Positions 2,779-60,093 of a DNA stretch of 64,000 nucleotides are shown here, piece by piece. The position numbers and the translations under genes are program-made. The stretch lies in NCBI GenBank assembly GCA_963810635.1, contig CAWEOB010000003.1, positions 44,736 through 108,735 on the forward strand. Direction: 5' to 3'. Position 1 is the first letter of the stretch, and every line of letters starts with the position of its first letter. The notes beneath the pieces were generated by a model. That model saw only the letters and a list, made by a program, of their open reading frames with translations, did not search any database and was not told the origin of the DNA. Source of the stretch: an uncultured Actinomycetes bacterium (lineage in GTDB: Bacteria; Actinomycetota; UBA4738; HRBIN12).

Positions 2779-5060
2779 AGATCGAGGTGACCTCCCTCGA
2801 AGCGCGGCTGATCGAGGTGCACGGCGTGGTCCAGGGTGTGGGGTTCCGGCCGTTCGTCTGGCGTCTCGCGGCGTCGCACGGCGTGACCGGCTGGGTCCGG
2901 AACGAAGGCGGACGCGTGACGATCCACGCCGAAGGCCCGCCGCCGGCGCTCGATGCCTTCGTGTCGTCGCTCCGTGATGATGCGCCGCCGCTCGCTCAGG
3001 TGGACGACGTCCGCTCGTCGCCGGTCGTGCCCGTCGGGTGCGAGACGTTCGACGTCGATCTCTCGGCGGACGTCCCGGGGGGCGAGCGCTTGGTCTCCCC
3101 CGATGCCGCCACGTGCACCGCGTGCCTCGGGGAGCTGTTCGATCCGAACGACCGTCGGTTCCGCTACCCGTTCATCAACTGCACGGATTGCGGCCCTCGC
3201 TTCACGATCATCGAGTCCCTCCCGTACGACCGCGGGCGGACCTCGATGCGCGCCTTCCCGATGTGCGAGACGTGTCGCCGCGAGTACGAGGACCCGGCCG
3301 ACCGCCGGTTCCATGCGGAGCCGATCGCATGCCCCGTCTGCGGCCCCCGGCTCCGGTTGGTCGACACGGCCGGCTCTCCCGTGGGTGGGGACCCCGTGGA
3401 GGAGGCAGCGCGGCTCCTCGGCGAAGGGGAGACCGTGGCGATCAAGGGGCTCGGTGGCTTCCACCTCGCCTGCGACGCCACCGATCCGGCGGCGGTCGGA
3501 CGGCTGCGCATGCGGAAGCTCCGCCCGGACAAGCCGTTCGCCGTGATGGTCGCGGACCTGGACGAGGCGCGACGCTGGTTCGACCTCACGGACGGGGAGG
3601 CCGCAGCCCTCACGTCGTGGCGAGCTCCGATCACGCTGGTACGTGACCGGGGCGAGCTCGCGCCGCCGGTGGCCCCCGGCCACCGGCGACAGGGCGCCAT
3701 GCTCCCGTCCACCCCCCTGCACCACCTGCTGACGCGCGCCGCCGCCGTGCCGCTCGTGATGACGAGCGGCAATGCCAGCGACGAGCCGATCTGCGTCGAC
3801 GACGACGACGCGCTCCGGCGTCTGCGTGGCATCGCCGGCGCGTTCCTGCTCCACGATCGCGAGATCGTGACGCGCTATGACGACTCCGTCGTCCTCGTCC
3901 GGACGGGCGACGTGGGCCTGTCGGTCCTGCGTCGAGCGCGCTCGTTCGCACCGCACCCCATCCCGCTCGCGCGTCCGGTCACCCGCCCGGTCCTGGGCGT
4001 CGGCGCCGAGCTCCACGGGTCGTTCTGCCTCCTCGAGGGTTCCCATGCCTTCCTGTCGCAACATGTAGGCGACCTCGATTCCGAGGAAGCGATGGCGGCA
4101 TACGCCGCCGCGTACGACCGGGCCTGCGAGGTCTTCCAGGTGACACCCGAGGTGGTGGCCCACGACCTCCATCCCGACCTGATGACCACCCGCTTCGCCG
4201 AGGGACTCGGCGTCCCCACCGTCGCGGTCCAACACCATCACGCGCACATCGCCGCGACCATGGCCGAGCACGGGCTCGACGGTGAGGTGCTGGGCGTCGC
4301 CTTCGACGGTCTCGGGTACGGCGACGACGGAACGATCTGGGGAGGTGAGCTCGTGCGGTGCACGCCCGCGCGGTCGGTGCGCGTCGGGCGGCTCCACCCC
4401 GTTCGCCAACCGGGCGGCGACGCCGCGACCCGCCACCCGTGGCGGATGGCCCTGTCGCACGCTGCAGCGGCCGGTGTGCTCGACGACGCGGCCCGCCTGC
4501 TCGGAGCCGATGATCGGGAGGTCGAGGTCGTCCTGGGTCAGCTGCGTTCGGGCCTGGCCTCGCCGGCCACCAGCTCAGCAGGCCGCCTCTTCGACGCGGT
4601 CGCCGCGCTCCTCGGCGTCTGCCGGCACGCGAGCTACGACGGGCAAGCGGCCATGCTGCTCGAGCAGGTGGCCCGGCCCGAGGACCCCCCCGTGCGGCCG
4701 ACGCTCCGCTCTGTGGACGGGTTCCTCGAGATCGAGACCGGGGAGCTGGTCCGCTGGGTGGTGGCTCGGCGAACGGCGGGCGGTGCGGTGGCGGAGATCG
4801 CGGGCGGCTTCCATGCCGCGCTCGCCGGCGCCGTCGCGCGCGCGTGCCTCGAGCTGCACGAGCACGGGGTCGTCGCGGACGACCGTGTCGTGCTGGGCGG
4901 AGGGGTCTTCCAGAACGATCTCTTCACGTCGGCGCTCGTGGGCCGGTTGACGGATGGCGGCCTGCGGGTGTTCCTTCCCAGGGAGGTCCCGGTGGGCGAT
5001 GGCGGGATCGCCCTCGGCCAGGCGTACGTGGCTGCCGCGAGCGGAAGGGGGAGCGACTGA
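2775..5060 (+). CDS. hypF: Carbamoyltransferase HypF
   Basis: GVVQGVGFRPF acylphosphatase domain, two CxxC zinc fingers, KGLGGFHL, QHHHAH, DGGIALGQ. Confidence 0.97.
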   Translation: MKIEVTSLEARLIEVHGVVQGVGFRPFVWRLAASHGVTGWVRNEGGRVTIHAEGPPPALDAFVSSLRDDAPPLAQVDDVRSSPVVPVGCETFDVDLSADVPGGERLVSPDAATCTACLGELFDPNDRRFRYPFINCTDCGPRFTIIESLPYDRGRTSMRAFPMCETCRREYEDPADRRFHAEPIACPVCGPRLRLVDTAGSPVGGDPVEEAARLLGEGETVAIKGLGGFHLACDATDPAAVGRLRMRKLRPDKPFAVMVADLDEARRWFDLTDGEAAALTSWRAPITLVRDRGELAPPVAPGHRRQGAMLPSTPLHHLLTRAAAVPLVMTSGNASDEPICVDDDDALRRLRGIAGAFLLHDREIVTRYDDSVVLVRTGDVGLSVLRRARSFAPHPIPLARPVTRPVLGVGAELHGSFCLLEGSHAFLSQHVGDLDSEEAMAAYAAAYDRACEVFQVTPEVVAHDLHPDLMTTRFAEGLGVPTVAVQHHHAHIAATMAEHGLDGEVLGVAFDGLGYGDDGTIWGGELVRCTPARSVRVGRLHPVRQPGGDAATRHPWRMALSHAAAAGVLDDAARLLGADDREVEVVLGQLRSGLASPATSSAGRLFDAVAALLGVCRHASYDGQAAMLLEQVARPEDPPVRPTLRSVDGFLEIETGELVRWVVARRTAGGAVAEIAGGFHAALAGAVARACLELHEHGVVADDRVVLGGGVFQNDLFTSALVGRLTDGGLRVFLPREVPVGDGGIALGQAYVAAASGRGSD

Positions 5061-5341: not shown

Positions 5342-6444
5342 GGTACCTCGATGAGTACCGCGACGACGACCTGGCCCGGTCGCTCCTGGACCGGATCGCG
5401 GTTGCCACGACCCGTCCATGGACGATCATGGAGGTCTGCGGAGGACAGACCCACACGCTGATCCGCCAGGGGATCGATCAGGTGCTCCCTGAGGAGATCG
5501 AGCTCGTCCACGGCCCCGGCTGTCCCGTCTGCGTGACCCCGGTCGCCCTGATCGATGAAGCCATCGCCATCGCGAAACGGCCCGACACCATCGTGTGTTC
5601 CTTCGGCGACATGTTGCGCGTGCCGGGGGTCTCCGAGGACCTCTTCATTGCGCGCGCTGCGGGCGGCGATGTCCGGGTCGTCTATTCGCCCTTGGATGCA
5701 CTCGAGATCGCTCGCCGTCATCCGGAGGCGACGGTGGTGTTCTTCGCCGTGGGCTTCGAAACCACGGCGCCGGCGAACGCGATGGCGGTCAAGCAGGCGC
5801 ATCGTTTGGGGATCGAGAACTTCGCGCTCCTGGTCGCCCACGTGCTGGTGCCGCCCGCCATCACCGCGATCCTGGTGTCCCCCGGTAACCGCGTGCAGGG
5901 GTTCCTGGCGCCGGGGCACGTGTGCGCGATCCAGGGGTGGCGCGAGTACGAGCCCATCGCGCGTGACTTCGGCGTGCCGCTCGTCGTGACGGGGTTCGAG
6001 CCGATCGACCTGCTCGAGGGGATCCTCATGCTGGTCGGGCAGCTCGAGGAGGGCCACGCCGAGGTCGAGAACCAGTACGTGCGCGCCGTGGTCCGCGACG
6101 GCAACGTGGCGGCCCGCCGGGTGGTGGAGGAGGTCTTCGAGACGGCCGATCGTGCCTGGCGCGGGATCGGCGTCATCGAGAAGAGCGGGCTCAAGCTGCG
6201 GCCCGCGTACGAGCATCACGACGCCGAGATCCTGTTCCCGCGCGTCGACGGCCCACCCGCGAGCGAGTCCGAGATCTGTATCGCGGGCGACGTGCTCCGC
6301 GGCAAGGCGAAGCCGCACCACTGTCCCGCCTTCGGAACGGACTGCACGCCGGACCACCCACTCGGGGCTCCGATGGTGTCGACCGAAGGCGCGTGCGCCG
6401 CCTACTTCTTGGCCGGCCGGGTCCGGGAGGAAGCGCCGGCATGA
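5338..6444 (+). CDS. hypD: Hydrogenase maturation protein HypD
   Basis: [33 protein letters not shown] motifs. Confidence 0.97.
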
Positions 6445-7505
6445 CAGAGCAGCGCGCCGCCGACTTCGCGCTCCAGTGCCCCGTGCCGCTCCCGCCGGGC
6501 GACCACGTCCAGCTCGGCCACGGGTCGGGCGGGAAGCTCACACGCGAGCTGATCCGCGAGCTGTTCGCGCCGGTCTTCGGCGACCCCGAGCTCGCACGCC
6601 TGGGCGATGCAGCGGTGCTGGAGCTCCCAGCCGGGGAGCGGCTCGCGTTCACGACCGACGCCTTCGTGGTCCAGCCGGCGTTCTTCCCGGGCTCGAACAT
6701 CGGCGAGCTCGCGGTGAACGGCACCGTGAACGACCTCGCCATGATGGGCGCGCAACCCTTCGCGCTGTCCGCGGCGCTGATCCTCGAGGAAGGCCTCGAG
6801 ATGGCCGCGCTCGGCACGATCGTGGCGTCCATGGCGGAGGCGTGCGATGCGGCCGAGGTCAGGCTCGTCACCGGCGACACCAAGGTCGTCGAGCGCGGGG
6901 CCGCCGACGGCCTCTACATCACCACGTCGGGCATCGGGATCGTGCCGGCGGCGGTCGACATCGGCCCGGAGCGGGCCCGGCCGGGGGACGTGGTCGTCGT
7001 GACGGGTCCCATCGGCTCGCACGGCGTCGCGGTGATGAGCCGTCGGGCAGGAATCGCGTTCGAGGCGGAGCTCCGCTCGGACACGGCGCCGCTCACGTCG
7101 CTCGTGAGCGCGATGCGCGGAGCGGGCGACGTCCGGGTGCTCCGCGATGCCACGCGAGGAGGCGTGGCCTCGGTCCTCAACGAGCTGGCCGAGGCGAGCG
7201 GTGTGTCGATCACTGTGGAGGAGGCGGCGTTCCCGGTCCTCCCGGCCGTCAAGGCGGCGTGCGAGATGCTCGGCCTCGATCCGCTGTACGTGGCGAACGA
7301 GGGCGTGGCCGTCGCGGTGGTGGGCGCCGCGGATGCCGACGCGGTGGTCGCCGCCGCGCGGTCGGTTCCGACCGGCGCGGCGGCGACCGTCGTGGGCGTG
7401 GTCGAGGCGCCGGGCGGCGGCAGTCCCGTGCGGGTGCGCACGGGGCTCGGCACCACCCGCCCCCTCATCCTGCTGGCGGGCGATCAGCTCCCGCGGATCT
7501 GCTGA
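6441..7505 (+). CDS. hypE: Carbamoyl dehydratase HypE
   Basis: HGSGG, GTVND, GDTKV, RDATRGG, C-terminal LPRIC. Confidence 0.97.
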
Positions 7506-7525
7506 GCGCGGGTACCCTCGCCATC

Positions 7526-7876
7526 ATGGCGGTGACCCGCGAACGGTTCGAGGAGCTCGTGGCCCAGGCCCTGGACGAGCTGCCGGAGTGGGTCCGCGAG
7601 GCCATGGACAACGTGGAGATCCTGGTCGAGGACCTGCCGCCTCCGGGCCAGCGGAACCTCTTGGGTCTGTACCACGGCGTGCCCCTCGCCGATCGCGGCA
7701 TCTTCTATACGAACGTCCTCCCCGACACGATCACGCTCTACCGGGCGACGATCATGGCCGTGGCCGGACCGAACGAGGACGCTCTGCGGACGCAGGTCAA
7801 ACGAACGGTGGCGCACGAGGTGGCCCACCACTTCGGGATCAGCGACGAACGTCTCCTCGAGATCGATGCCTACTGA
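7526..7876 (+). CDS. Zinicin-like metallopeptidase
   Basis: LLGLYHGVPL, PDTITLYR, HEVAHHFG motif; TACCCT -10 7 nt upstream. Confidence 0.85.
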   Translation: MAVTRERFEELVAQALDELPEWVREAMDNVEILVEDLPPPGQRNLLGLYHGVPLADRGIFYTNVLPDTITLYRATIMAVAGPNEDALRTQVKRTVAHEVAHHFGISDERLLEIDAY

Positions 7877-8330
7877 CCCGGCACGGGACGACGAACGGTG
7901 GATGCGCCGAGCGCTCGACCGTGCCTCTTCGTGTCAGGCGCACGGGGACGTCCCGATCGGCTCCGTGATCGTCCGCGGCGGCGAGGAGCTCGCCGCAGCG
8001 GGGAACGAGCGCGAGCTCCGGCAGGACCCCACGGCGCATGCCGAGATCCTGGCGCTCCGTGCCGCCGCAGAGGCGACCGGCTCCTGGCGTCTGGACGGCT
8101 GCACGCTCTACGTGACGCTCGAGCCGTGCGCCATGTGTGCGGGAGCGATCGTGCTTGCTCGGACGCCTCGGGTCGTGTTCGGAACCCCGGACCCCAAGGC
8201 GGGTTTCGCGGGGTCGCTCGGGAACCTGCTCCAGGACGATCGGCTGAACCACCGAGCCGACGTCATGGGAGGCGTGCTCGAGCGCGAGTGCGGCGAGCTC
8301 CTCCGTGCCTTCTTCCGCGACCGGCGCTGA
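7866..8330 (+). CDS. tadA: tRNA adenosine(34) deaminase
   Basis: PTAHAE and TLEPCAMCAGA motifs, C-term FF..RR. Confidence 0.92.
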   Translation: MPTDPARDDERWMRRALDRASSCQAHGDVPIGSVIVRGGEELAAAGNERELRQDPTAHAEILALRAAAEATGSWRLDGCTLYVTLEPCAMCAGAIVLARTPRVVFGTPDPKAGFAGSLGNLLQDDRLNHRADVMGGVLERECGELLRAFFRDRR

Positions 8331-8335
8331 CGCGC

Positions 8336-8725
8336 TCAGTGTTCCCGTCGTTCGCGGAACGCGTTGGTGATGCGGTCGGCCACCATCGGGTAGTCGTGGC
8401 ACAGGGAATCGAACTCCCGCGTCGCCATGACCATGAGCCGCATCGGCGACGAGGCGACCACGGTTGCGGTCCGCCGGTCGTGCTCGAGCAGCGCGATCTC
8501 ACCGAAGAAGTCACCGGAGCCGAGCTCGGCGACCGGTTGTCCTTCGCGTTCCACGTCGGCCTTCCCGTCGAGGATCACGAAGAACTCGTGCGGCAGCCGT
8601 CCTTGGTAGAGGAGGTGATACCCGTCCGGCACGTCGACCACATCGGCCCAGCGTGCCACCGTCTCGAGGTCGCGCTTCGTCAGACCTTCGAAGAGCGGTT
8701 GTCCTTCCAGATCGTGTGCATCCAC
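8336..8725 (-). CDS. Stand-alone cyclic nucleotide-binding domain protein
   Basis: GDFFGEIALL...RRTATV phosphate-binding cassette; 129 aa, no HTH. Confidence 0.85.
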   Translation of the reverse strand: MDAHDLEGQPLFEGLTKRDLETVARWADVVDVPDGYHLLYQGRLPHEFFVILDGKADVEREGQPVAELGSGDFFGEIALLEHDRRTATVVASSPMRLMVMATREFDSLCHDYPMVADRITNAFRERREH

Positions 8726-8822
8726 GCCTCGATCCCCCTGGCTCGGCGGGTCCGTCGCACCGCATCATGCCACGGGGGGACCGGACCGGGTCGCCCGGGT
8801 ACCCCTTGCTAGACTCGGCGAC

Positions 8823-8912
8823 GGAGGCGTGCCGGAGCGGCCGAACGGGACCGCCTCGAAAGCGGTTAGGGGCCTAATCCGTCCCTCGCGTGTTCAAATC
8901 ACGCCGCCTCCG
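8823..8912 (+). tRNA. tRNA-Ser(CGA)
   Basis: Acceptor GGAGGCG/CGCCTCC, anticodon arm ACCGC-CT-CGA-AA-GCGGT, long variable arm, T-loop TTCAAAT; TAGACT upstream. Confidence 0.95.
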
Positions 8913-27217: not shown

Positions 27218-27246
27218 TTGTCTACCAACCGGTAGATATGGATAAT
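27218..27246 (+). promoter_or_regulatory. Promoter TTGTCT-N17-GATAAT with overlapping palindromic operator TCTACC-AACC-GGTAGA (27221-27236)
   Basis: 17-bp spacing; perfect 6-bp inverted repeat; -10 lies 7 nt before GTG 27254. Confidence 0.75.
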
Positions 27247-27253
27247 CTGCCGC

Positions 27254-29556
27254 GTGGTAGAGAACGAAGCGGGAGGCGCCGCCGCCGATCGGTCGATCGT
27301 GGATGCCCTGGCCGGCCGGACCATCTTCCTGACCGGGGTCACGGGGTTCCTCGGTCAGGTCGTGCTGGAACGCCTCCTCCTCGACTTCCCCGAGACGCAC
27401 GTCACGGTGCTCGTGCGATCGCAGCCATCGGCCTCCGCCCACGACCGCGTCCTCTATCTCCTGAGGAAGCCCGCGTTCGACGTCCTCCGGGCGCGACACG
27501 GATCGGACGAGGCGTTGGCAGCCCTGCTCGACCGGCAGGTGACCGTGCTCGAGGGCGACTTCACGCACGGAGAGCCGGACATCCCCGCGGGGATCGACGT
27601 CGTGATCCATTCCGCCGCCACGGTGAGCTTCGATCCGCCCATCGACGAGGGGTTCCAGACGAACCTCCTGGGCGCCAGGAACCTCTACCGCGGGGCGATC
27701 GCGCGGAACCGGCCCCACCTCGTCCACGTTTCCACGGCGTACGTGGCCGGTGTGCAGAAAGGGGTGATCCCGGAGGGTCCCCTCGAGCACCGCGTGGACT
27801 ACGAGCTCGAGGCCGACCTCGCGCTGCAGGCACGACGCGACGTCGAGGCGCAGTCGCGCAAGCCCGAGATGCTCGAGCACTTCATGGCGAAGGCCGCGAA
27901 GGACCACTCGCGCGCCGGACCCAGCACGGTGTCCCAGGACGCGGAGGAACGACGCAAGGACTGGGTGACGAAGCGTCTCGTGGAGTACGGCCGGATGCGT
28001 GCTCGGACACTCGGATGGCCCGACGTGTATACGTTCACGAAGGCTCTCGGCGAGCGTGCGGTCGAAGACCTCGCGCACGCCGAAGACCTGCCCCTGTCGA
28101 TCGTCCGTCCGTCGATCATCGAATCGGCGTTGGAGCATCCGTCGCCCGGGTGGATCGACGGCTTCAAGATGGCGGATCCGATCATCCGGGCCTACGGCCT
28201 GGGTCAGATCCCCGAGTTCCCCGGCATCCCCGAGGGCATCGTCGATCTCATCCCCGTGGACTACGTGGTCAACGTGATCCTCGCCGTGGCGGCGTCGCCA
28301 CCTCGCGCCGGTGACCCGGCCCACTACAACGTGTCGAGCGGCGATCGGAACCCGCTCCGGTTCTTCGAGCTGTACGAGTACGTTCGCGCGTACTTCGAGG
28401 CGCACCCCTTGCCGGAGCGCGGGCGCGGTGAGCACAAGGTCCCCGAGTGGAAGTTCCCCGGTACCGCTGCGGTCGAGACGATGCTCCGCCGTGCGGAGCA
28501 GCTGACCGACGTCGCCGAGAAGGTCGTGACCCACCTGCCGAAGTCCAGGCGGATGCGCGACGCGGTCGCGCGGGTGGATCGTGACCAAGCTCGGGTGGAG
28601 TTCGTGAAGCGGTATTCGGACCTGTACGGCATGTACACCGAGACCGAGGTCGTCTACACCGACGAGCGTGTCGTCCGGCTCTGGCGCTCGATATCGGCAG
28701 AGGACCAGCAGCGGTTCCCCTTCGACGCCGGCACGATCGATTGGCGTCACTACCTCCAAGACGTCCATTGCCCGGCGGTGACGCAGAGCCTCCGGGAGCT
28801 CTCCACGAAGGATCGCGAGAAGCCGCGCGTCTCGGTCCGACCACACGACGACCTCGTGCTGGCGGTCTTCGACATGGAGGGCACGATCATCAGCTCGAAC
28901 GTCGTCGAGTCCTACGTCTGGACGCGCTTCGCCGATCTCGAGCGGGACGAGTGGCCGAGCGAGCTGGTGTCGGTCTTCGGGCGGAATCCCCGGGTACCTG
29001 CGGACCGACCGCCGGGACCGTGGTGATTTCCTCCGGACGTTCTTCCGCCGCTACGAGGATGCGTCCGTCGAGCGCGTCGACGCCCTGATCGAGAACCACG
29101 TGGGCGAGTTCATGCTGCAGAAGGCCTCGCCCGCCGCCCTCCGCCGCGTCCGTGAGCACCGTGCCGCCGGCCATCGCACCATCCTCATCACCGCGGCCGC
29201 CGAACCGTTCGTCCGGGTCCTCGCACCTCTCTTCGATGTGCTCGATCGGAGCCGAGCTCGAGGTCCGCGACGGCCGCTACACCGGCTTCATGTCCGCACC
29301 GCCGTTGGTGGGGGAGGCGCGCGCCGCGTGGCTCCGGCGCTACGCGTTGCAGGAAGGTGCCGGGTTGCGGCACTCGTACGGATACGCGGACTCGTATTCG
29401 GACCTGCCGCTGCTCCGCACCGTCGGTCATCCGGTTGCCGTGTCGCCCGACTCCCAGCTGTACCGGCATGCGCGGCGCCGGCGGTGGCCGATCGAGGAAT
29501 GGGCGATGTCGAAGGGGATGCCCAGGGTGCGCTTCCCGAAGCCGGCGGCCAGGTGA
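27254..29556 (+). CDS. Fatty acyl-CoA reductase (extended SDR + FAR C-domain) fused to HAD-IB phosphatase; frameshifts near 28985 and 29244
   Basis: TGVTGFLG, HVSTAYV, YTFTK, RPSIIES, DLIPVD; then FDMEGT...ITAA...YADSYSDLPLL HAD motifs. Confidence 0.85.
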
Positions 29557-29563
29557 GGATGGG

Positions 29564-30781
29564 ATGACGACGCTCGCCATCGAGTACTTCCGCTCAACCG
29601 CCCGGTACCTGGGTGCGCGCACCGTGGGTACGAAGGCACCCGGGCTGCTCGCGGGTCCCCTCGCGCCCCTCCGACTGGTCAACCGGAAGGACCCCGAGCC
29701 GCCGCGGGGCCGCACGGGGTGGGCGCGGGTGAAGCCGGTGCTCTCAGGATCTGCGGGAGCGACCTCGCGACCATCGCCGGCCGATCGTCCTTCTACTTCT
29801 CGCCCTTGGTCTCGATGCCCTTCGTCCCCGGCCACGAGGTCGTCGGCGAGCTGGTGGACGGGTGCGAGGACCTTGACGCCGGAACCAGGGTCGTCCTCGC
29901 CAGCGTGCTCGCGTGCGCCGCCCGCGGCGAGGACCCGCCGTGCGCCAACTGTGCGGTGGGCATGGCCAACCGTTGCGACCGCGTCACGGTCGGCCATCTG
30001 CGGCCGGCGCTCCAGACCGGCTACAGCGCCGAGACGTCCGGCGGGTGGGCCCGTCAGATGGTGGCGCATAGGTCGCAGCTGTGGGCCGTTCCCGACGGCA
30101 TCGATGACCGAACGGCGGTCCTGATCGAGCCCCTGGCCGATGCCATCCACGCCGCCTTCCGTGCCGACCTCCAGCCGGAGAGCGAGGTCCTGATCGTCGG
30201 AGCTGGAACGGTCGGCCTGCTGACCCTCCTGGCGGTCAAGCTGCTGACGCCGGCGGGTCGTGTCACCGTGGCGGCGAAGCACGAGCGCCAACGGGCCGCC
30301 GCGCGGTTGGCGGGCGCGGACGAGATCGTTCGGCCGGAGCACGCCGTGAAATCCGTCCGACGGCACGCGAGCGCCGTGAAGCTCTCACCCGAGCGAGGTC
30401 AGGACTTCCTGCTCGGCGGCGTCGACGTCGCGATCGAATGCACCGGGTCGCGCTCGGCGTTGGATCCTGGCGCTCCGGACCACGCGGGCCGGCGGCCGCG
30501 TGGTCGTGACCGGGATCCCCGGCGCCGGCGCCGACCTGACCCCGCTGTGGTTCCGCGAGCTCGAACTGGTGGGCGCGTACACGACCGGCACAGAGACGCT
30601 CCGCGACGGTTCCCAGAAGCACGCGTTCCAGCTCGCGCTGGAGCTGGCGGCCAACCTCCCGATGCTGGCGGACATGGTGGGTGCCACGTATCCGCTCGAC
30701 CGGTGGCGAGATGCCATCGACCACGCGATGTCCGCCGGCAAGCTCGGCACGTTCAAGGTGGCGTTCGCGCCGCAGGACTGA
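29564..30781 (+). CDS. Zinc-binding medium-chain dehydrogenase; frameshifts near 29747 and 30468
   Basis: ICGSD, PGHE, structural-Zn Cys cluster, IEPLA, GAGTVG. Confidence 0.85.
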
Positions 30782-30798
30782 AGGAGAGACCGAACCCG

Positions 30799-32388
30799 AT
30801 GCCTAGGCCAGGATTCGTCTTGGAGGTCGACGAACGGACGCCGTCACTGCTCGTCCACGAGGGCGAGGGGTACCGGTTGCAGCGGTTCCCCCTCGGGACC
30901 CGCGTCGTCTATCCACCCGATCCTCTGCCGGGGATCAAGGACCTCAACGCGCAGATCCGTCGTGCTCTGCTCGAGCCCATCGGCGATGCCGAACCCCTCC
31001 CGGAGCTCCTGTTCGCGGGGATGAAGCTCACGATCGCCGTGGACGACATCTCCATCCCGCTCCCACCCATGGTCACCCCGGACATCCGCCAGCGGATCCT
31101 GGAGCACGTGATCGAGCTGGCGGCGCAGAAGGGTGTCGACGACCTCGAGATCGTGGTGGCCACCGCGCTGCATCGTCGGATGACCGCCGACGAGATCCGC
31201 CGGATGGTGGGCGAGCGCGTGTATCGCTCCTTCTGGCCGAAGAGCCTCTACAACCTGGATGCGGAGGACGCGGACGCCATGACCGTCATGGGCCGGACGG
31301 ACCAGGGCGAGGTCGTCCAGATCCAGACGCGCGCCGCGGAGTCGGACCTGATCGTCTACGTCAACATCAACCTGGTGGCCATGGACGGTGGGCACAAATC
31401 CGTAGCTGTCGGACTCGCCGGGTACGAGAGTCTCAAGCACCACCACAACGTGAACACGATGCTGCACTCGAGGTCCTACATGGATCCGCGCGCAGGGCAT
31501 TCAGCGATCAACGACAGCGTCACGCGGATGGGACGGTTCCTCCGTGACAACGGCGTGAAGATCTTCCAGATCGAGACGACGATGAACAGCGAGACCTTCC
31601 CCTCCCAGATGTCCTTCCTCAACAAGCGGGAGTGGGAGTGGTCCGCCAAGGATCAGGCGTTGATGGTGGCCGCGAAGAAGGCCAACGACCTGGCACCGCC
31701 GAGGGTCCGCCGGGAGTTCTACCGTCGGATCGAAGCGCCGTACAAGGTGACCGGGATCAACGCGGGCGAGGTGGAGGCCGTGCACGAGCGCACGCTCGAG
31801 AACCTCCACCGTCAGCAGCTGGTCGAGGTCCAGGGTCAGTCCGACATCGCGATCTTCGGGCTGCCGTACCTCGGCCCGTACAACGTGAACTCGATCCTCA
31901 ACCCGATCCTGGTGCATTGCCTCGGGCTCGGGTACCTCTTCAACATGTACCGGAACAAGCCGCTGGTCCGCGAGGGCGGTGTCGCGATCCTGTATCACCC
32001 CGTGCCCTGGGAGTTCCACACGATCCACCACCCCAGCTACATCGACTTCTTCGAAGAGGTACTGGCGGACACGACCGATCCGAAGGAGATCGAGGCGAAG
32101 TACGAGGAGCGGTACGCAACGGACCCCTGGTACGTCCACCTCTACCGGACCTCGCACGCGTACCACGGCGTGCATCCCTTCTACATGTGGTACTGGGGAG
32201 CGCACGGCCGCGATCATTGCGGCGACGTGATCTTCGTGGGCGGCGAGCCGAAGAGCGTCAGCAGGCTCGGCTACCGTCGAGCGGATTCGCTCCGCGACGC
32301 TCTCGAGATGGCGAAGGACTCGGTCGGTTCGTCGCCGTCGATCACCTACTTCCACGCGCCGCCGATCATGATCGCGGACGTGCACTGA
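30799..32388 (+). CDS. LarA (lactate racemase)/DUF2088 domain protein
   Basis: AAGGAGA RBS; IAVDDIS, ATALHRRM, DGGHKS motifs; 529 aa. Confidence 0.8.
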   Translation: MPRPGFVLEVDERTPSLLVHEGEGYRLQRFPLGTRVVYPPDPLPGIKDLNAQIRRALLEPIGDAEPLPELLFAGMKLTIAVDDISIPLPPMVTPDIRQRILEHVIELAAQKGVDDLEIVVATALHRRMTADEIRRMVGERVYRSFWPKSLYNLDAEDADAMTVMGRTDQGEVVQIQTRAAESDLIVYVNINLVAMDGGHKSVAVGLAGYESLKHHHNVNTMLHSRSYMDPRAGHSAINDSVTRMGRFLRDNGVKIFQIETTMNSETFPSQMSFLNKREWEWSAKDQALMVAAKKANDLAPPRVRREFYRRIEAPYKVTGINAGEVEAVHERTLENLHRQQLVEVQGQSDIAIFGLPYLGPYNVNSILNPILVHCLGLGYLFNMYRNKPLVREGGVAILYHPVPWEFHTIHHPSYIDFFEEVLADTTDPKEIEAKYEERYATDPWYVHLYRTSHAYHGVHPFYMWYWGAHGRDHCGDVIFVGGEPKSVSRLGYRRADSLRDALEMAKDSVGSSPSITYFHAPPIMIADVH

Positions 32389-32396
32389 GGCCCGCC

Positions 32397-33308
32397 ATGT
32401 CGAAGGCACGCGACGAAGTCAAGGAGATGGCCCGGGGGTTCCGGTGGGGTCGGCGCCCGCTCGTGCCGCGCTCGGCCGAGCCGTTCGTGGAGGAGTCGTT
32501 CGACGAGGGGTTCCCCACCGACTGGGCCCGGAGCGAGGCCGGGGTCGCGGCCCGCCAGGCGATCCTCAACGGCGTCATGCAGCCCATCGTGCGCAACGAG
32601 CTCTCGCTCCGCGTCTACGGTCTCGACAACCTGAAGGGTGAGTCCGGGCCCGTGCTCTTCTTCTCGAACCACTCGAGCCACCTGGACGCCACGTTGATCC
32701 TCTGCACGCTTCCCGACCGCTGGCAGCGCAAGACCGCCGTCGGCGCGGCGCGCGACTACTTCTTCGATGTGTGGTGGCGGCAGGCTTTCACCGCGCTCGT
32801 GTACGGCGCGTTCCCGATCGATCGGGGCAGGGGAGGGACGGGCGCCATCGACAAGGCCCGAGCCCTCGTGCAGGAGGGGTGGTCGATCGTCGTGTTCCCG
32901 GAGGGGACGAGGTCGCCCGACGGGCACCTGCAGCGCTTCCGGCACGGGACGTCCCGCCTCGCGCTCGAGCTCGGCGTGCCGTTGGTGCCCATCGCGATCG
33001 TCGGTGCCTACCAGGCCATGCCGAAGGGCAAATGGTGGCCGCGCCCGGGTCGGCCCGTGGTCACGATGCGCTACGGGCCGCCGATCCACGCCGAGGAGGG
33101 TGAGACGCATCAGTCCCTCTCGCTGCGGATGCAGCACGCGGTCGCGCGGATGTTCGATGAGGACCGGACCACCTGGTGGGAGTCCTTGCAGCGGGCCGAG
33201 CGGGGCGAGACGCCCTCCTTGGCGGGGCCGCCCGGGCCCTCATGGCGCCGGACATGGGAGGGCATGCGGCCGGTGGCGCGCCGCGGCGAACCGAAGGCCT
33301 GGGAGTAG
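32397..33308 (+). CDS. PlsC-like lysophospholipid acyltransferase
   Basis: NHSSHLD, FPIDR, FPEGTRS, LVPIAI motifs. Confidence 0.9.
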   Translation: MSKARDEVKEMARGFRWGRRPLVPRSAEPFVEESFDEGFPTDWARSEAGVAARQAILNGVMQPIVRNELSLRVYGLDNLKGESGPVLFFSNHSSHLDATLILCTLPDRWQRKTAVGAARDYFFDVWWRQAFTALVYGAFPIDRGRGGTGAIDKARALVQEGWSIVVFPEGTRSPDGHLQRFRHGTSRLALELGVPLVPIAIVGAYQAMPKGKWWPRPGRPVVTMRYGPPIHAEEGETHQSLSLRMQHAVARMFDEDRTTWWESLQRAERGETPSLAGPPGPSWRRTWEGMRPVARRGEPKAWE

Positions 33309-33316
33309 GAGGGGCG

Positions 33317-33928
33317 ATGCCGCGGACCGGCGGCGAGCAGCGTCGAAGCACGATCGTGGAGGAGGCGATCCGCGCGTTCGGTCGCGAGGGCTACCAGGGT
33401 GCATCGCTGGACACCATCGCCCAGGCCGTCGGGGTGCGGAAGCAGACGCTGCTCTACTACTACCCCACGAAGGACGATCTCCTCGAGGCTTGCCTCGCCG
33501 CCGCGGGCCAGCGCGTGGCGGAGGAGATCGCGACGGCGCTCGAAGGTCCCGCCGAGGCGGGTGAACGAGCCGAACGCGTGATCAGGGCGGTCTACGCGCT
33601 CGCGGAGGAGTGGCCGGAGTTCCCGATGTTCATCCGCGAGGCCGGCCGTCTCGGCCCGGACGCGTTCCACCGGTTCGCGGGCTCCCTCGACCCCCTCCGC
33701 GACCGGGCGATCGAGTTCCTCCAGGCGGGGATGGACGCGGGTCAGATCCGCAAGCAGGACCCCGCCCTGTTGCTCTTCACGCTCTACACGGCCGTGATCG
33801 GCTCGCTCACCGAGGCGAGCGTGCTGTCGTCGTTCGTGGGAGCGGATGACGCCCGAACGTCGCTGCGTCGCCGCGAGGAGGAGGTCGTGGCGTTCGTGCG
33901 CGCGGCACTTCGGCCGCCGGACGACTGA
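33317..33928 (+). CDS. TetR/AcrR family regulator
   Basis: GYQGASLDTIAQAVGVRKQTLLYYYPTKDDL HTH. Confidence 0.93.
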   Translation: MPRTGGEQRRSTIVEEAIRAFGREGYQGASLDTIAQAVGVRKQTLLYYYPTKDDLLEACLAAAGQRVAEEIATALEGPAEAGERAERVIRAVYALAEEWPEFPMFIREAGRLGPDAFHRFAGSLDPLRDRAIEFLQAGMDAGQIRKQDPALLLFTLYTAVIGSLTEASVLSSFVGADDARTSLRRREEEVVAFVRAALRPPDD

Positions 33929-40057: not shown

Positions 40058-40131
40058 TCGGGACGGCGGGATTCGAACCCGCGACCTCAGCGTCCCGAAC
40101 GCTGCGCGCTACCAAGCTGCGCTACGTCCCG
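40058..40131 (-). tRNA. tRNA-Pro(CGG)
   Basis: CGGGACG acceptor, AGCTTGGTAGC D-loop, CAGCG-TT-CGG-GA-CGCTG, GGTTCGAATCC. Confidence 0.96.
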
Positions 40132-40142
40132 GAAGGTGCAGT

Positions 40143-41036
40143 TTAGCGGGCCGACGGCGCGGCCTGCCCCGCGGGTCGCCTCGACAGCTCGAGGATGGTG
40201 ACCTCCGGCCGACAGCAGAACCGGAACGGTGCGAACTTGCTGGTCCCGAGGCCCGGTGAAGTGTGGAGGACGGCCGGTCCCATCTGGATCAAGCCCGAAG
40301 CCAGCCGTCGCGGCATGGAGCAGTTGGTCACCAGAGCGCCGGCGCCTGGGATCCGCACCTGACCGCCGTGCGTGTGCCCGGCGACCATGAGGTCGTACCC
40401 GAGCGCCGCGGTCTCCGGCGCGGAGTCCGGCGAATGCATCACCGCGAGCCCGAACCGCTCCGGCGCGCGACGAGGTGCGACCCGCAGGTCGTGCCAGCGG
40501 ATGTGCGCGTCGTCGAGACCGAGGAGCTCGACCGGAAGGCCGTCGATCCTCACCTCGTGCCGGGTGTTCGTCAGATCCTGCCAGCCGTCGTCACGGAGCT
40601 GCGCGATCAGATCTGCCGCTCGGCCACGGGTCGCGCGGCGGTGCTTCCGCCGCCGCCGGAAGTAGGCGAAGTAGTTCAGCGGCTTGGGCTCGAAGTGGTC
40701 GTTCGATCCCAGGACGAACCAGGAGGCGAGGCGACCACGAACGGCGCGCACGCCCTCGACGGCGGCTTCGACCGCGTCCGGCTCGGCCAGGAAGTCCCCC
40801 GTCACCACGGTGACGTCGGGCTGCGGGAGCGAGCGGAGGAAGCGGGCCTTCTTGGGGTCGCTCCGAACGAAGTGCAGGTCCGACAGGTGGAGTACCGTGA
40901 GGTTCGAAGGACCGTCGGGGGGCAGGAGCGCGAGCCGGTAGCGCACGACGCGGTACCAGGAGCGTTCCACGACGACGCCCCACACGACGCAGCACGCGCC
41001 GAGCCCGAGGACCGCGAGCGCGAGGGCGGGGAACAC
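40143..41036 (-). CDS. Metallophosphoesterase
   Basis: SDLH, TGD, GSND, HSPD, GHTHGGQ. Confidence 0.9.
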   Translation of the reverse strand: MFPALALAVLGLGACCVVWGVVVERSWYRVVRYRLALLPPDGPSNLTVLHLSDLHFVRSDPKKARFLRSLPQPDVTVVTGDFLAEPDAVEAAVEGVRAVRGRLASWFVLGSNDHFEPKPLNYFAYFRRRRKHRRATRGRAADLIAQLRDDGWQDLTNTRHEVRIDGLPVELLGLDDAHIRWHDLRVAPRRAPERFGLAVMHSPDSAPETAALGYDLMVAGHTHGGQVRIPGAGALVTNCSMPRRLASGLIQMGPAVLHTSPGLGTSKFAPFRFCCRPEVTILELSRRPAGQAAPSAR

Positions 41037-48147: not shown

Positions 48148-49531
48148 TCAGCTCTCGTCGTCGAGGTCGTCGCCCTCCAGCGCGTACTGGACCGCGCGCG
48201 CCAGGTCGCGGACCTGCCCGTCCGTCACCGTTCGGACATCGAGGAGCACGTGATCCTCCGCGACGCGGCAGAACACCGAGAGCCCGCCGCCCGACCGGAG
48301 ACGGCCGGCGAAGGCGGGAGGATCCGGGACGCTCACGCGGACGCCCCACGAGGGGAGCGTCATCCCAGGAAGTGCGCCACCGCCGACGACCGATGCGCAA
48401 TGGACCACATGGGCTCCCTCGAGATCGCCGTCGAGCGCCTCGCACAGCCGATGGGCCCGCTTCGCGAGCGCCTCGACCGGCTCGTGGATCATCCGATGGA
48501 CCGGGATCTCGCTGTGCTTCCCCGTGGCGTAGAGCATCAATGTGGCCTCGAGGGCCGCCACCTGGAGCTTGTCGACGCGGACGGCCCGGGCGACCGGATG
48601 GAGGCGGAGCTTCGCCAACAGGTCGGCACGTCCCACGATGCACCCGGCTTGCGGACCGCCGAGCAACTTGTCGCCGCTGAACGTCACGACGTGGGCCCCT
48701 TCGTCGAGCGCGCCGCGCACGTTGGGCTCGTCACCGGAGAGGCCTCGCTCGGCATCGAGGAGTCCGGAGCCGACGTCGTAGAGCAAGGGAACGCCTTTCG
48801 AGGTGGCGAGTGCCGCCAGCTCGGGAGCACCGGCCTCGGCGGTGAAGCCGACGACCCGGTAGTTCGATGGGTGGACCTTGAGGATCGCCGCGGTCCGGTC
48901 GTCGAACGCCTTGCGGTAGTCCGCGAGGCGGGTCCGGTTGGTGGTCCCGACCTCGACCAGCTTGGCGCCGGCCGCCGCCATGATGTCGGGGATCCTGAAC
49001 TCGCCGCCGATCTCGATCAACTCGCCCCGGGACACCAGGACGGGCTTGCCCTTCGCGAGGGCTGCGAGCGCCAGCAAGAGTGCCGCGGCGCAGTTGTTCA
49101 CGACGAGGGCGTCCTCGGCGCCCGTGAGGGCGGCGAGGATGGCCTCCGCTCGAGCGCCGCGCTTGCCTCGGCGCCCGGTCTCCCGGTCCACCTCGAGGTC
49201 GGTGTACCCGGGCGCCGCTCGCGAGACGGCGCGGAGCGCCGCCTCCGCGAGCGGCGCCCTCCCCAGGTTCGTGTGCAGGATGACCCCGGTGGCGTTGATC
49301 ACCGGGGTGAGACCGAACGCCACCACACGGGCACGGCTCACGGCCGTCGCGAGGATACTCGTCGGCGATGGGCGGCTCGATGCCCTCGGCCGCCGCCTTC
49401 CGCACCTCGCCCAGCACGCGGTCGAGCTCGCGCTTCAGGAGCGCCCGGCCCACAACCGCTGCGGCCCGCTTGCCGGGCCCCGAACGGAGCAGCGTGTCCA
49501 ACGAGGGGACCTTCCGCCGAGCGTCGGTCAT
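48148..49531 (-). CDS. selA: L-seryl-tRNA(Sec) selenium transferase; frameshift near 49355
   Basis: PVINATGVILHTNLGRAPL, VNNCAAA, SRGELIEIGG, EVGTTN, FSGDKLLGGPQAG; TACACT 7 nt upstream. Confidence 0.95.
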
Positions 49532-58302: not shown

Positions 58303-59354
58303 CGCGCCCGCGCTTCCTCCAGCCAGGCCGGGGCGGGGAGCCCCGGCGTGGCGAGCACCAGCCATCGGAACCGTCCGAGCCCGCCGGGGTCGGCCAGGAG
58401 GGTGGCGCGCGAACGTCCGGACCACGTCCGGACGGCCGCCGCCCCTTCGCGGGCCTCGAGCTCCTCGTGCTGGCGTGACAGCTCCTCGCGCAGCCATCGC
58501 TCGAGCCCGAGCGCCATCAGCGCATCGTGCTGGGAGACGAGGGGGAAAGCCTGAAGGCCGGCGGCCCGTGCCCGGGCCGCGACGGCGTCGAAGTCGACCC
58601 CTGCCGTGATGTCGGTCTCGCCCGGAGCGGTCGAGGACATCGGCCACCACGCGGTGGGCCCGGTAGCCGTGGACCTCGCCGGACGGTCCGGCATCGCCGT
58701 AGTCGATCAGCACGGCGTAGCCGTTCGGTCGCAGGGTTCCGGCGAGCCGCCCGATGAACGTCTGGATGCCGACCGGCACCACGATGTCGCCGGCGGGAAC
58801 CGTTCCGGGGAGCATCGAGCGCAGCTCGTCGTCCGCGTCCATCTCGAGCGTGACGAGGCGGTCGCCGTCGAGGCCGACCCGCATCTCCTTGCCCGTCGCG
58901 CACGACCCGGAAGGGGAGGTTGTCGAGGAGCTCGTTCGCGATCAGCACGTGGGTGTCGACCCGAAGCTCGCTCCACGGCGACGACACCCGCGACCCGGGC
59001 GAGCTCCTCCCGGGCCGTCGCGCCGAGCTCCACCCCCGTGTACGTCGAGGGAACGTCCGCCAGCGCGTCGAGCAGCTGCCGTGCGAGGGTCCCGTCGCCG
59101 GCCCCCACCTCCGCGATCTTGAGCGGGTCGGGTCGTCCGAGGGCTTCCCAGAGGTGGCGGACCGCACGACCGAGCAGCTCCCCGAACACGGGATGGACGT
59201 GGGGACTCGTGACGAAGTCGCCGTCGGTCCCTACCGGCGTGCCGGTGTAGAACCCGCCGGACCCGTACAGGGCGCGCTCCATGAACTCGGCGACCGTGAT
59301 CGGGCCGTGGTCACGGATGGCGTCGTGGATCGCCCGGCTGGCTCCTTCGGTCAC
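58296..59354 (-). CDS. NDUFAF7/MidA (DUF185) SAM-dependent methyltransferase; frameshifts near 58965, 58890 and 58627
   Basis: FMERALY, GDFVTSP, EVGAGDGTLA, ANELLDNLPF, IDYG, DITAGVDF, Q..AL..LG spread over several frames. Confidence 0.82.
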
Positions 59355-59444
59355 GCTCCGAGTATGGGACGGGGCCACGATGACGCCACCCCGCGGCTCC
59401 GACGCCGAGGCGATCCGACGGAGAGCGCCTGGGAGGATGGGGAC

Positions 59445-60093
59445 GTGAGCGATGCGCCGATCCGCCGGGCTGCCTCCGTCATCTGCGTGCGCGAGGGCGG
59501 CGGAGGTCCCGAGGTGCTCGTGGTCGAACGGAGCCTCGAGAGTCGTTTCCTCCCCGGCTACGTCGCGTTCCCCGGCGGGGCGGTGGAGGATGCGGACGCG
59601 GAGCACGCGGAGCGGTGGTTCGGCTCCGCCGGCGAGGCACCACGTGCCGCGGCGATCCGCGAGCTGCTCGAGGAGGTGGGCCTCGTGCTGAACGCGGATG
59701 GACTCGGGGCAACGGAGGGAGCCGATCCGCTCGCTCGGGTGCACGCGGCACCGCCGACCACGCGGCAGCTGCCGGAGATGGCGCACTGGATCGCCCCACC
59801 GGCCGTCCCGGTCCGGTTCGATGCGCGCTACTTCGCGGTCTCCGGCGAGGGCTGCCGTGACGCCGGTTCCCGACGGCGTGGAGGCGTCCGACGCCTGGTG
59901 GATCTCGCCTCGCCAGCTGCTGGCCGAGTGGGAGCGTGCGGAGCGGAAGCTCTACTGGCCGACGTTCGTTACCGTCCGACATCTCGCGGCGTGCGGGTCG
60001 GCCGACGACGTCCTCTCGCTCCGGTTCGAGACACGTGAGCCCAACGACGAGGAGATCGCCACGCTCCCCCGGTCCGTGATGGAGCAGGACTGA
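59445..60093 (+). CDS. NUDIX hydrolase; frameshift near 59855
   Basis: AASVI, FPGGAVE, AAIRELLEEVG, HWIAP, RFDARYF. Confidence 0.85.

Follow-up and report, generated by a model that had tools for sequence, protein, structure and literature searches.

A conserved actinobacterial operon with a LarA-like protein is probably a split form of the elb-type lipid gene clusters

A 64,000-nt stretch of DNA from an uncultured actinobacterium, which we call the window, contains an operon of five + strand genes at 27254-33928 that is very probably a homologous elb-type cluster in an actinobacterial split form. This stretch lies in contig C3 of a metagenome-assembled genome (MAG), G000 (2.96 Mb in 11 contigs, ~70% G+C, marker completeness 81.7%), whose close relatives carry no label more specific than uncultured Actinomycetota or Actinomycetes. 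The genes, identified from open reading frames (ORFs) with Pfam and NCBIfam, encode a fatty acyl-CoA reductase (FAR) fused to a HAD phosphatase, a Zn-dependent dehydrogenase, a LarA-like protein, a PlsC-type acyltransferase and a TetR regulator. The comparison with elb loci suggests that the unexplained elb gene, in the ElbC position, would encode a nickel-cofactor enzyme of the lactate-racemase family. The reading as a whole, an elb-type cluster making an alkyl ether glycerolipid, is one that we favor by a modest degree. The features are as follows:

27254..29556, + strand: FAR-HAD fusion with NAD_binding_4, Sterile and HAD-IB domains (Pfam, NCBIfam), in three frames in the assembly
29564..30781, + strand: Zn-dependent medium-chain dehydrogenase of the polyol-dehydrogenase type (Pfam ADH_N and ADH_zinc_N), in three frames in the assembly
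30799..32388, + strand: LarA-like protein of the LarAH14/15/16 family, 529 aa, intact (NF052592, Lar_N)
32397..33308, + strand: PlsC/AGPAT-type acyltransferase, 303 aa, intact (Pfam Acyltransferase, PF01553)
33317..33928, + strand: TetR-family regulator, 203 aa, intact, the last gene of the operon (Pfam TetR_N)
27218..27261, + strand: promoter-like region with two operator-like palindromes (inverted-repeat search, alignment of relatives)

The intergenic gaps measure, from 5' to 3', 7, 17, 8 and 8 nt, in agreement with the original prediction of co-oriented genes separated by 7-17 nt. The catalytic motifs, which the same prediction described as intact, are present in the window's gene pieces and conserved in orthologues.

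The elbB-elbE ether-lipid cluster, with the ElbD pathway of Myxococcus xanthus, was reportedly described by Lorenzen et al. in 2014. In the account of the M. xanthus operon given in PMC9131029, elbA belongs to the NAD-epimerase family and is dispensable, elbB encodes a HAD-like phosphohydrolase, elbC is listed as of function unknown, elbD encodes FAR-like, acyl-CoA synthetase (ACS), acyl carrier protein (ACP) and AGPAT-like domains, and elbE is again of the NAD-epimerase family; the genetics described there link alkyl and vinyl ether lipids to elbD and, with less certainty, to elbE and elbB. ElbD homologues have also been reported in Actinobacteriota MAGs, in a passage of PMC11868695.

Both ends of ElbD have counterparts in the operon, as had been predicted. 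The FAR part of the window matches 102 longer proteins, at 26-38% identity with E-values down to 6e-85, and it aligns with their N-terminal domain; 101 of the 102 combine NAD_binding_4 with an AMP-binding domain, and 97 carry an acyltransferase domain as well. A domain scan confirmed the FAR-AMP-binding architecture in P0200 (labelled Myxococcota) and P0124, and proteins of this ElbD type are found in Acidobacteriota, Planctomycetota, Gemmatimonadota, Verrucomicrobiota and Myxococcota. With the window's PlsC as query, 97 of the 102 are matched in their C-terminal acyltransferase domain (approximately residues 1215-1440), the best matches showing 35-45% identity and up to 124 bits.

The genes that surround ElbD-type proteins extend this correspondence. 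We took 80 ElbD-type loci from metagenome contigs, 61 of them with at least 1700 nt of upstream sequence, and found a full-length, co-oriented LarAH directly upstream in 47 of the 61, and one downstream in a single locus. These ElbC-position proteins are 45-52% identical to the window's LarA-like protein; on NF052592, the four LarAH from ElbD-type loci that were scanned (three of the upstream ones and that of L202, which lies downstream) reach 767-854 bits, and all 48 share the active-site signature of the actinobacterial LarAH. An ElbB-like HAD protein lies upstream of LarAH in 45/80 loci and matches the window's HAD domain over near-full length at 27-35% identity (E down to 1e-31), both belonging to PF12710. 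In L135 the genes run HAD (220 aa), LarA-like (532), FAR-ACS-ACP-acyltransferase (1470) and NAD-epimerase (364). This is the published elbB-C-D-E order, with the LarA-like protein in the ElbC position; the suggestion in the original prediction that the elb operon also has a HAD gene and a DUF2088-type gene is matched by what is seen in ElbD-type loci.

A variant order (ElbD-type, HAD, Zn-dependent alcohol dehydrogenase (Zn-ADH)) was observed in four metagenome contigs, L198, L202, L209 and L213. The Zn-ADH of these loci is 40-41% identical to the window's type and follows the HAD gene, as it does in the window; LarAH comes after Zn-ADH in L202, and none lies within the examined flank in L213. 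The variant loci appear intermediate between the classical elb arrangement and the split operon of actinobacteria. An ElbE-like short-chain dehydrogenase/reductase (SDR) is present in 46/80 ElbD-type loci versus 0/80 of the actinobacterial loci surveyed below, and ElbE-like SDR and Zn-ADH never occur together in one locus.

Judged by sequence, the set of FAR, AGPAT-like acyltransferase, HAD, LarAH14/15/16 and a reductase is one conserved module, fused (elb) or split. The operon shares with the M. xanthus cluster, as represented by the ElbD-type metagenome loci, a FAR-like reductase, an AGPAT-like acyltransferase, a HAD protein, an NAD(P)-dependent reductase, a LarAH that stands in the ElbC position, and the co-orientation of the genes. 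It differs in that FAR and acyltransferase, which are domains of ElbD, are encoded by separate genes, whereas the HAD protein, which stands alone as ElbB, is fused to FAR. The ElbD protein includes ACS and ACP, in contrast to the operon: no AMP-binding or PP-binding domain was found in its five genes, and none is conserved beside the core in the 80 actinobacterial loci. Finally, the place of the ElbE SDR is taken by a Zn-dependent medium-chain dehydrogenase, and a TetR gene is attached. The split elb-like route that had been proposed is supported in part, by gene homology and clustering; it differs from elb in ACS/ACP and in the type of reductase.

To assess conservation across Actinomycetota, we surveyed one genome per species for relatives of the LarA-like protein, found at least 595 loci and examined the best 80. 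The core order FAR-HAD, ADH, LarAH, PlsC is kept in all 80 wherever the contig reaches: PlsC follows LarAH in 80/80; ADH precedes LarAH in 78/80, the other two contigs beginning at LarAH; and FAR lies upstream in 72/80, the remaining eight contigs ending before it. FAR and HAD form one open frame in 62 loci. The carriers include Kribbella, Actinomadura, Micromonospora, Actinoplanes, Nocardioides, Frankia, Actinoallomurus and Phytohabitans, as well as Haloechinothrix, Jiangellaceae, Acidimicrobiales and many uncultured lines. The clustering of the core genes is far beyond chance, and the gene-neighborhood survey that had been suggested for Actinomycetota finds the same order in every locus examined, as far as its contig extends.

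The surroundings of the core are more variable. TetR lies directly 3' of PlsC in 23/80 loci, all of them in or near the window's own order, and upstream and divergent in four Acidimicrobiales-like loci. When the 643 flanking ORFs of the 80 loci were clustered, TetR was the largest family (16 loci), and apart from larB, larC and larE no other family among these ORFs was common beyond the genus or family level. Synteny at the genus level involves a histidine-biosynthesis-type barrel, a P450, a methyltransferase, a TauE-type exporter, an aldehyde dehydrogenase and a sigma factor.

In one relative of the window (L119 in G054, 3531-4203), two small ORFs lie between the FAR-HAD and dehydrogenase genes; by eye one resembles a ribbon-helix-helix antitoxin and the other a MazF/PemK-type toxin. 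The same gap of ~830-920 nt is present in G016 (L016), G018 (L122) and G019 (L015), so that this insert is found in relatives of the same genus; it is absent from the window and from G004. A 2.7-kb contig (L091) carries LarA-like, PlsC and TetR genes 63-73% identical to those of the window and sits in a MAG labelled Candidatus Velamenicoccus archaeovorus, which fits an actinobacterial contig binned into the genome of another phylum. Lastly, a protein of 1153 aa (P0122, on a public 469-kb contig) was considered as a Rosetta-stone fusion of FAR and ADH and rejected: most of HAD and the N-terminus of ADH are missing, and frameshifts in that long-read assembly probably produced a spurious ORF.

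The catalytic residues of the enzymes that flank LarAH are almost invariant. The FAR, with its NAD_binding_4 (PF07993) and Sterile (PF03015) domains, retains GxTGFxG and YxxxK in 62/62 orthologues, and the fatty acyl-CoA reductase structure 7eoz matches residues 8-504 of the G004 orthologue (E 1e-48); we predict an alcohol-forming type of fatty acyl-CoA reductase, whose product would be an alcohol or an aldehyde. The fused HAD domain is of the HAD-IB type by PF12710 and TIGR01490. Among the 62 orthologues, its motif I, FD[ML][ED]GT, has the Asp in all, with Glu (33) or Asp (29) at the +2 position; the Thr of motif II is found in 61/62 and the DSxSD motif in 62/62. The dehydrogenase retains the catalytic Cys, His and Glu, four structural Cys and GxGxxG in 71/71 orthologues; its nearest solved relatives are 4ej6, ketose reductase 1e3j, L-idonate 5-dehydrogenase, and xylitol and sorbitol dehydrogenases. 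The acyltransferase, matched by 5kym (E 2.5e-16), has HX4D in 78/78 orthologues and the FPEGTR motif with Glu in 77/78 and Arg in 78/78; its acceptor may be dihydroxyacetone phosphate (DHAP), glycerol-3-phosphate or a lyso-lipid.

The LarA-like protein is the most unusual component. It scores 881.3 bits on NCBIfam NF052592, the LarAH14/15/16 family (cut-off 740), and contains Lar_N (PF09861, E 1e-36). D82/D83, H125, K200 and H215/H216 are invariant in 76/76 orthologues. By comparison with Lactobacillus plantarum LarA, these include the residues that hold the nickel-pincer nucleotide (NPN), namely the K200 tether, the nickel ligand H216 and D83 at the ribose, together with one catalytic His (H125, the counterpart of His108). 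The second catalytic His (His174 of L. plantarum LarA) is replaced throughout, by Asn in 61, Thr in 14 and Ser in 1 of the 76, and the position of the carboxylate-binding Arg75 is occupied by Leu or Ile. We presume that the protein is an NPN enzyme with a single catalytic His, in keeping with the account in PMC12611868 that LarAH groups 14 and 15 are without the second one. Because the second His and the Arg are replaced, and because the Frankia LarAH14 was inactive in all seven activities assayed in the section of PMC7583248 that treats it, the substrate is likely to be other than a free 2-hydroxy acid and the reaction other than simple racemization.

A quick maximum-likelihood tree (IQ-TREE) places the 23 actinobacterial and the 47 ElbC-position LarAH in one clade each, and sets the two together apart from a sister group with an SH-aLRT of 100. 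This sister subfamily is 37-38% identical and scores 505-536 bits on NF052592, below the cut-off. Its neighbors were scanned in two loci, L129 (G071, 5756-8699) and L133 (G179, 5931-8831); in both, LarAH directly follows a family III CoA-transferase, and its neighbors in L129 also include an AMP-binding enzyme, a hint that substrates in this branch may be linked to CoA. Compared with the LarA superfamily as a whole, the operon's protein has in common Lar_N, the NPN-tethering Lys, the nickel His, the ribose Asp and one catalytic His; the solved single-His homologues from Streptococcus plurextorum and Blautia wexlerae (9q2u, 9q3k, 9q3j) likewise have the second His replaced, mostly by Asn. It differs from the solved enzymes in its distant sequence similarity, in having Leu or Ile for the carboxylate-binding Arg/Lys, and in its gene context, which is lipid metabolism rather than the glycolysis and sugar genes found for the solved relatives.

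Use of the NPN cofactor is supported by the distribution of its biosynthesis genes, since larB, larC and larE lie within the examined flank in 14/80 actinobacterial loci and LarC is present in most holders of LarAH. In an even selection of 301 Actinomycetota genomes, each at least 90% complete, 70 carry this LarAH above the curated cut-off, and 63 of the 70 have LarC. Among relatives of G000, LarC was found in 33/41 and LarB in 32/41. The seven LarAH carriers that lack LarC are all members of the family of the window, and some of their assemblies are 92-98% complete. Across the family, genomes in which no LarC was found are G000, G054, G112, G152, G214, G247, G301, G018, G019 and G023, the last three of which also have no LarB above cut-off.

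This leaves a question of cofactor supply: LarAH is kept under selection in genomes that appear to be without larBCE. Six LarC-less genomes have a fully open operon, and the ratio of nonsynonymous to synonymous substitution rates (dN/dS) of LarAH between such genomes is 0.06-0.13, not above the values for LarC-positive ones; the gene is under purifying selection there. Either these organisms obtain the cofactor in another way or their assemblies share a blind spot. For G000 the absence may reflect either an assembly gap or a true loss: the 20-kb larBCE neighborhood of its relative G005 is absent as a whole (0/21 ORFs with an orthologue in G000).

In the window, the FAR-HAD and dehydrogenase genes are broken by four single-base indels, which we placed by alignment to the relatives G001, G004, G019 and G016, all four of which agree on each site:

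FAR-HAD fusion: one extra base at 28985 and one extra base at 29243
Zn-dependent dehydrogenase: one base missing near 29743 and one extra base at 30465

A frame plot of G+C content at third codon positions (GC3) changes frame at the same four sites, and both genes are single open frames in relatives (764 and 415 codons from stop to stop in G004). These frameshifts are very probably assembly errors. We read them as errors because near-identical short-read contigs lack two of them, because identity to relatives is steady, and because other genes and other genomes are split in the same manner. Specifically, the extra base at 29243 is absent from two public soil short-read contigs, one of them otherwise 150/150 identical, and that at 28985 is also absent from two; in these public soil runs, each of which covers at most 0.14 of the stretch, no contig bridges 29743 or 30465. 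Identity to relatives is ~81% across all three FAR-HAD pieces, and GC3 is near 0.9 in the correct frames of the broken genes. Further genes in the window are split between frames relative to the ORFs of G004 and G001 (at ~49355, ~40130-40190 and ~58600-59450), and similar splits occur in relatives assembled into few contigs: G001 (HAD), G247 (PlsC) and G301 (HAD and LarAH).

The sequence around the indels hints at a source. GATC occurs 702 times in the 64 kb of the window, versus 176 expected from base composition. All four operon indels lie within 5 nt of a GATC or would restore one, against a random-position background of 0.15. This hints at long-read basecalling errors tied to a motif that may be methylated; a fifth split, placed only roughly (near 49355), shows no such association.

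We considered the opposite interpretation, in which the frameshifts are real and the operon of this genome is a decaying pseudogene cluster, made useless by loss of larBCE. Four indels within 1.5 kb, the failure to find LarB, LarC and LarE in the G000 assembly, and the position of 29743 and 30465 outside short-read coverage all agree with it. It is nevertheless very unlikely in view of the near-identical short-read contigs without two of the indels, the undiminished identity of the FAR-HAD pieces and the steady GC3 of the correct frames, the additional split genes in a MAG that consists of 11 contigs yet reaches only 81.7% marker completeness, and the low dN/dS of LarAH among LarC-less genomes, in six of which the operon is fully open. 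With the frameshifts probably errors, the operon is probably intact in the organism.

How could such a set of enzymes produce an ether lipid? We propose a pathway, all of whose chemical steps we infer by analogy with the eukaryotic, AGPS-type route. PlsC would acylate DHAP or glycerol-3-phosphate, and FAR would supply a fatty alcohol or aldehyde; with ACS and ACP missing, the reductase presumably takes ready-made acyl-CoA. The nickel-pincer enzyme would then perform the AGPS-type step, with its cofactor briefly accepting a hydride or electron from backbone C2 while the sn-1 acyl group is exchanged for alkyl. The C2 alcohol would be fixed by the dehydrogenase, and the HAD domain would remove the phosphate to give 1-O-alkylglycerol-based lipids. 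A single catalytic His would fit an enzyme that removes the hydride of C2 and, once the adjacent carbon has been altered, restores it to the same face; it would fit a racemase less well.

The comparison with AGPS is instructive for this assignment. According to the description in PMC9131029, a second and minor operon of M. xanthus encodes AGPS, a fusion of FAR with an acyltransferase, and an SDR. We regard LarAH as a candidate for the AGPS step because the elb module has HAD and ElbC where this second operon has AGPS. The AGPS route (FAR1, GNPAT, AGPS and acyl/alkyl-DHAP reductase; MXAN_1676-1674), as outlined in PMC9131029, resembles the operon in fatty alcohol supply, a backbone acyltransferase, a ketoreductase and a later phosphatase; the FAD-dependent AGPS itself is absent from the operon, and the LarA-type protein occupies a slot without a counterpart in that route. 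The anaerobic ether-lipid enzymes PlsA/PlsR and Ger, as described in part of PMC13159169, would share the product class of alkyl or alkenyl glycerol ethers; they are unrelated proteins that act on finished ester lipids, and the operon has no homologue of them.

These steps carry different degrees of confidence. An alkyl-glycerol lipid is the most likely product, because the genetics of M. xanthus tie the elb genes to ether lipids, and we put the chances that the product is an alkyl ether glycerolipid at about even. That the LarA-like enzyme is the ether-forming step is a tentative assignment, and we are correspondingly doubtful of its generalization, namely that the LarAH14/15/16 branch, ElbC included, is an AGPS-independent ether-bond enzyme of aerobic bacteria that works through an NPN sink, and that many soil Actinomycetota make alkyl-glycerol ethers.

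Several observations weigh against reading the operon as an elb-type cluster for an ether lipid. The biochemistry of the elb route is itself unsolved: in the account of PMC9131029, ElbD showed no acyltransferase activity, no fatty alcohol was detected, the effects of the elbB insertion were put down to polarity, and the elb section gives no elbC phenotype. In the report of PMC11868695, ether lipids were not seen in a cultured Pontiella that has an ElbD homologue. Our comparison was made with ElbD-type metagenome loci, M. xanthus entering through its published description. Among the 61 ElbD-type loci with sufficient upstream sequence, 13 have no LarAH nearby. In nine of these 13 we looked for AGPS in place of LarAH, and none of the 10 ORFs beside the ElbD-type genes was AGPS-like (they encode a TPR protein, an SDR, a permease or a diacylglycerol-kinase domain, or have no match); mutual exclusion therefore gives the AGPS analogy no support. 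The inactivity of the Frankia LarAH14 counts here as well, as do the failures to find LarB, LarC and LarE in G000 (81.7% complete) and LarC in six other genomes of the family (92-98% complete) that hold LarAH, and the coverage of only two of the four frameshift sites by short reads. Our literature search found no paper on the operon and no lipid data for any of its carriers.

The lack of ether lipids in that cultured, ElbD-bearing organism would also be expected if the operon made another lipid derived from a fatty alcohol and without an ether bond, such as a wax-ester-like compound, an acylated polyol or a phosphorylated intermediate trimmed by HAD. In other bacteria FAR products feed wax esters. 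As part of such a scheme the LarA-like enzyme and the dehydrogenase might only tailor a polyol or sugar-phosphate head piece, in line with the ketose, idonate, xylitol and sorbitol dehydrogenases that are closest to the latter. The closest solved LarA relatives, the single-His enzymes 9q2u and 9q3j, are suspected by their authors to act on a phosphorylated sugar, in the discussion of substrates in PMC12611868. We nonetheless consider a product without an ether bond unlikely: wax synthase and glycosyltransferase genes are missing from the operon and are not conserved around it in the 80 loci, and its gene set is shared with elb-type clusters, the one pathway for which there is genetics.

The replacement of the carboxylate-binding Arg by Leu or Ile suits a substrate without a free carboxylate, and this suggests a different product again. 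The LarA-like enzyme could epimerize a 2-hydroxyacyl thioester or a 2-hydroxy fatty acid, which FAR would reduce to a 1,2-diol and PlsC would acylate to a diol lipid. The position of the sister LarAH after a family III CoA-transferase in L129 and L133, with an AMP-binding enzyme in L129, points in the same direction. The scheme leaves the HAD phosphatase and the polyol-type dehydrogenase without a clear role, however, and no 2-hydroxylase or 2-oxoacid enzyme was found in or beside the operon; we know of no report of such diol lipids in cultured carriers. We judge it quite improbable.

The chemistry of the LarA family, in which a secondary alcohol is inverted through a keto intermediate (as presented in PMC7583248), could alternatively be applied to C2 of glycerol phosphate or of a lyso-lipid, as in the stereo-inverting role that the original prediction offered as an option, and the glycerolipids would then have opposite stereochemistry. 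Two catalytic His residues are required by the known mechanism, and the second is Asn, Thr or Ser in 76/76 actinobacterial and 48/48 ElbC-position proteins. In the structural discussion of PMC12611868, moreover, the authors argue that single-His enzymes work at most in one direction. Inversion at C2 is for these reasons a very improbable function, and the elb-type pathway to an alkyl-glycerol lipid remains the reading that we prefer.

Among the papers searched, and for DUF2088 among the matches listed, none connected ether lipids or acyltransferases with the LarA family, with DUF2088 or with nickel-pincer enzymes. The main text of PMC7583248 contains neither 'lipid' nor 'acyltransferase'; its Table S1, which gives COG contexts for LarAH groups 14-16, may already name FAR, PlsC, HAD or ADH as neighbors. 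The elb genes of Actinobacteriota have been speculated to serve branched tetraether synthesis, in a passage of PMC11868695. The present results give an orphan branch of the nickel-pincer family a concrete and testable context, in lipid synthesis rather than 2-hydroxy-acid metabolism, and name a candidate for the unsolved, ether-forming step of the ElbD route. They also locate a compact, four-gene version of the pathway in cultured and tractable actinomycetes (Kribbella, Micromonospora, Actinomadura, Actinoplanes, Nocardioides and Frankia), for which gene knock-out and analysis of lipids are routine. Alkyl-glycerol ethers serve as environmental markers; if ether lipids are made, abundant soil Actinomycetota would be candidate, unrecognized sources of these biomarkers.

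Expression of the operon is probably repressed by the product of its own 3' TetR gene, acting through two candidate operator palindromes. A promoter-like sequence consists of TTGTCT (27218-27223), a 17-nt spacer and GATAAT (27241-27246). A perfect TCTACC-N4-GGTAGA palindrome at 27221-27236 lies in the promoter spacer, and a second copy with one mismatch, at 27246-27261, overlaps the GTG start; because of this overlap we propose that the transcript may be leaderless. The block of promoter and palindromes is conserved in 7/7 aligned relatives of the window's family, and the second palindrome is also kept in G035, from another family. The perfect palindrome occurs once in the 2.96-Mb assembly, with the one-mismatch copy 25 nt downstream. 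One other pair of one-mismatch sites, on contig C7 (46936 and 47122), was examined as possible operators and set aside, since it lies inside a coding region and was taken as chance.

The neighbors of the operon, recognized by eye, look like housekeeping genes: aspartokinase and aspartate-semialdehyde dehydrogenase genes lie upstream, and a gene for an S4 ribosomal protein lies directly downstream on the opposite strand.

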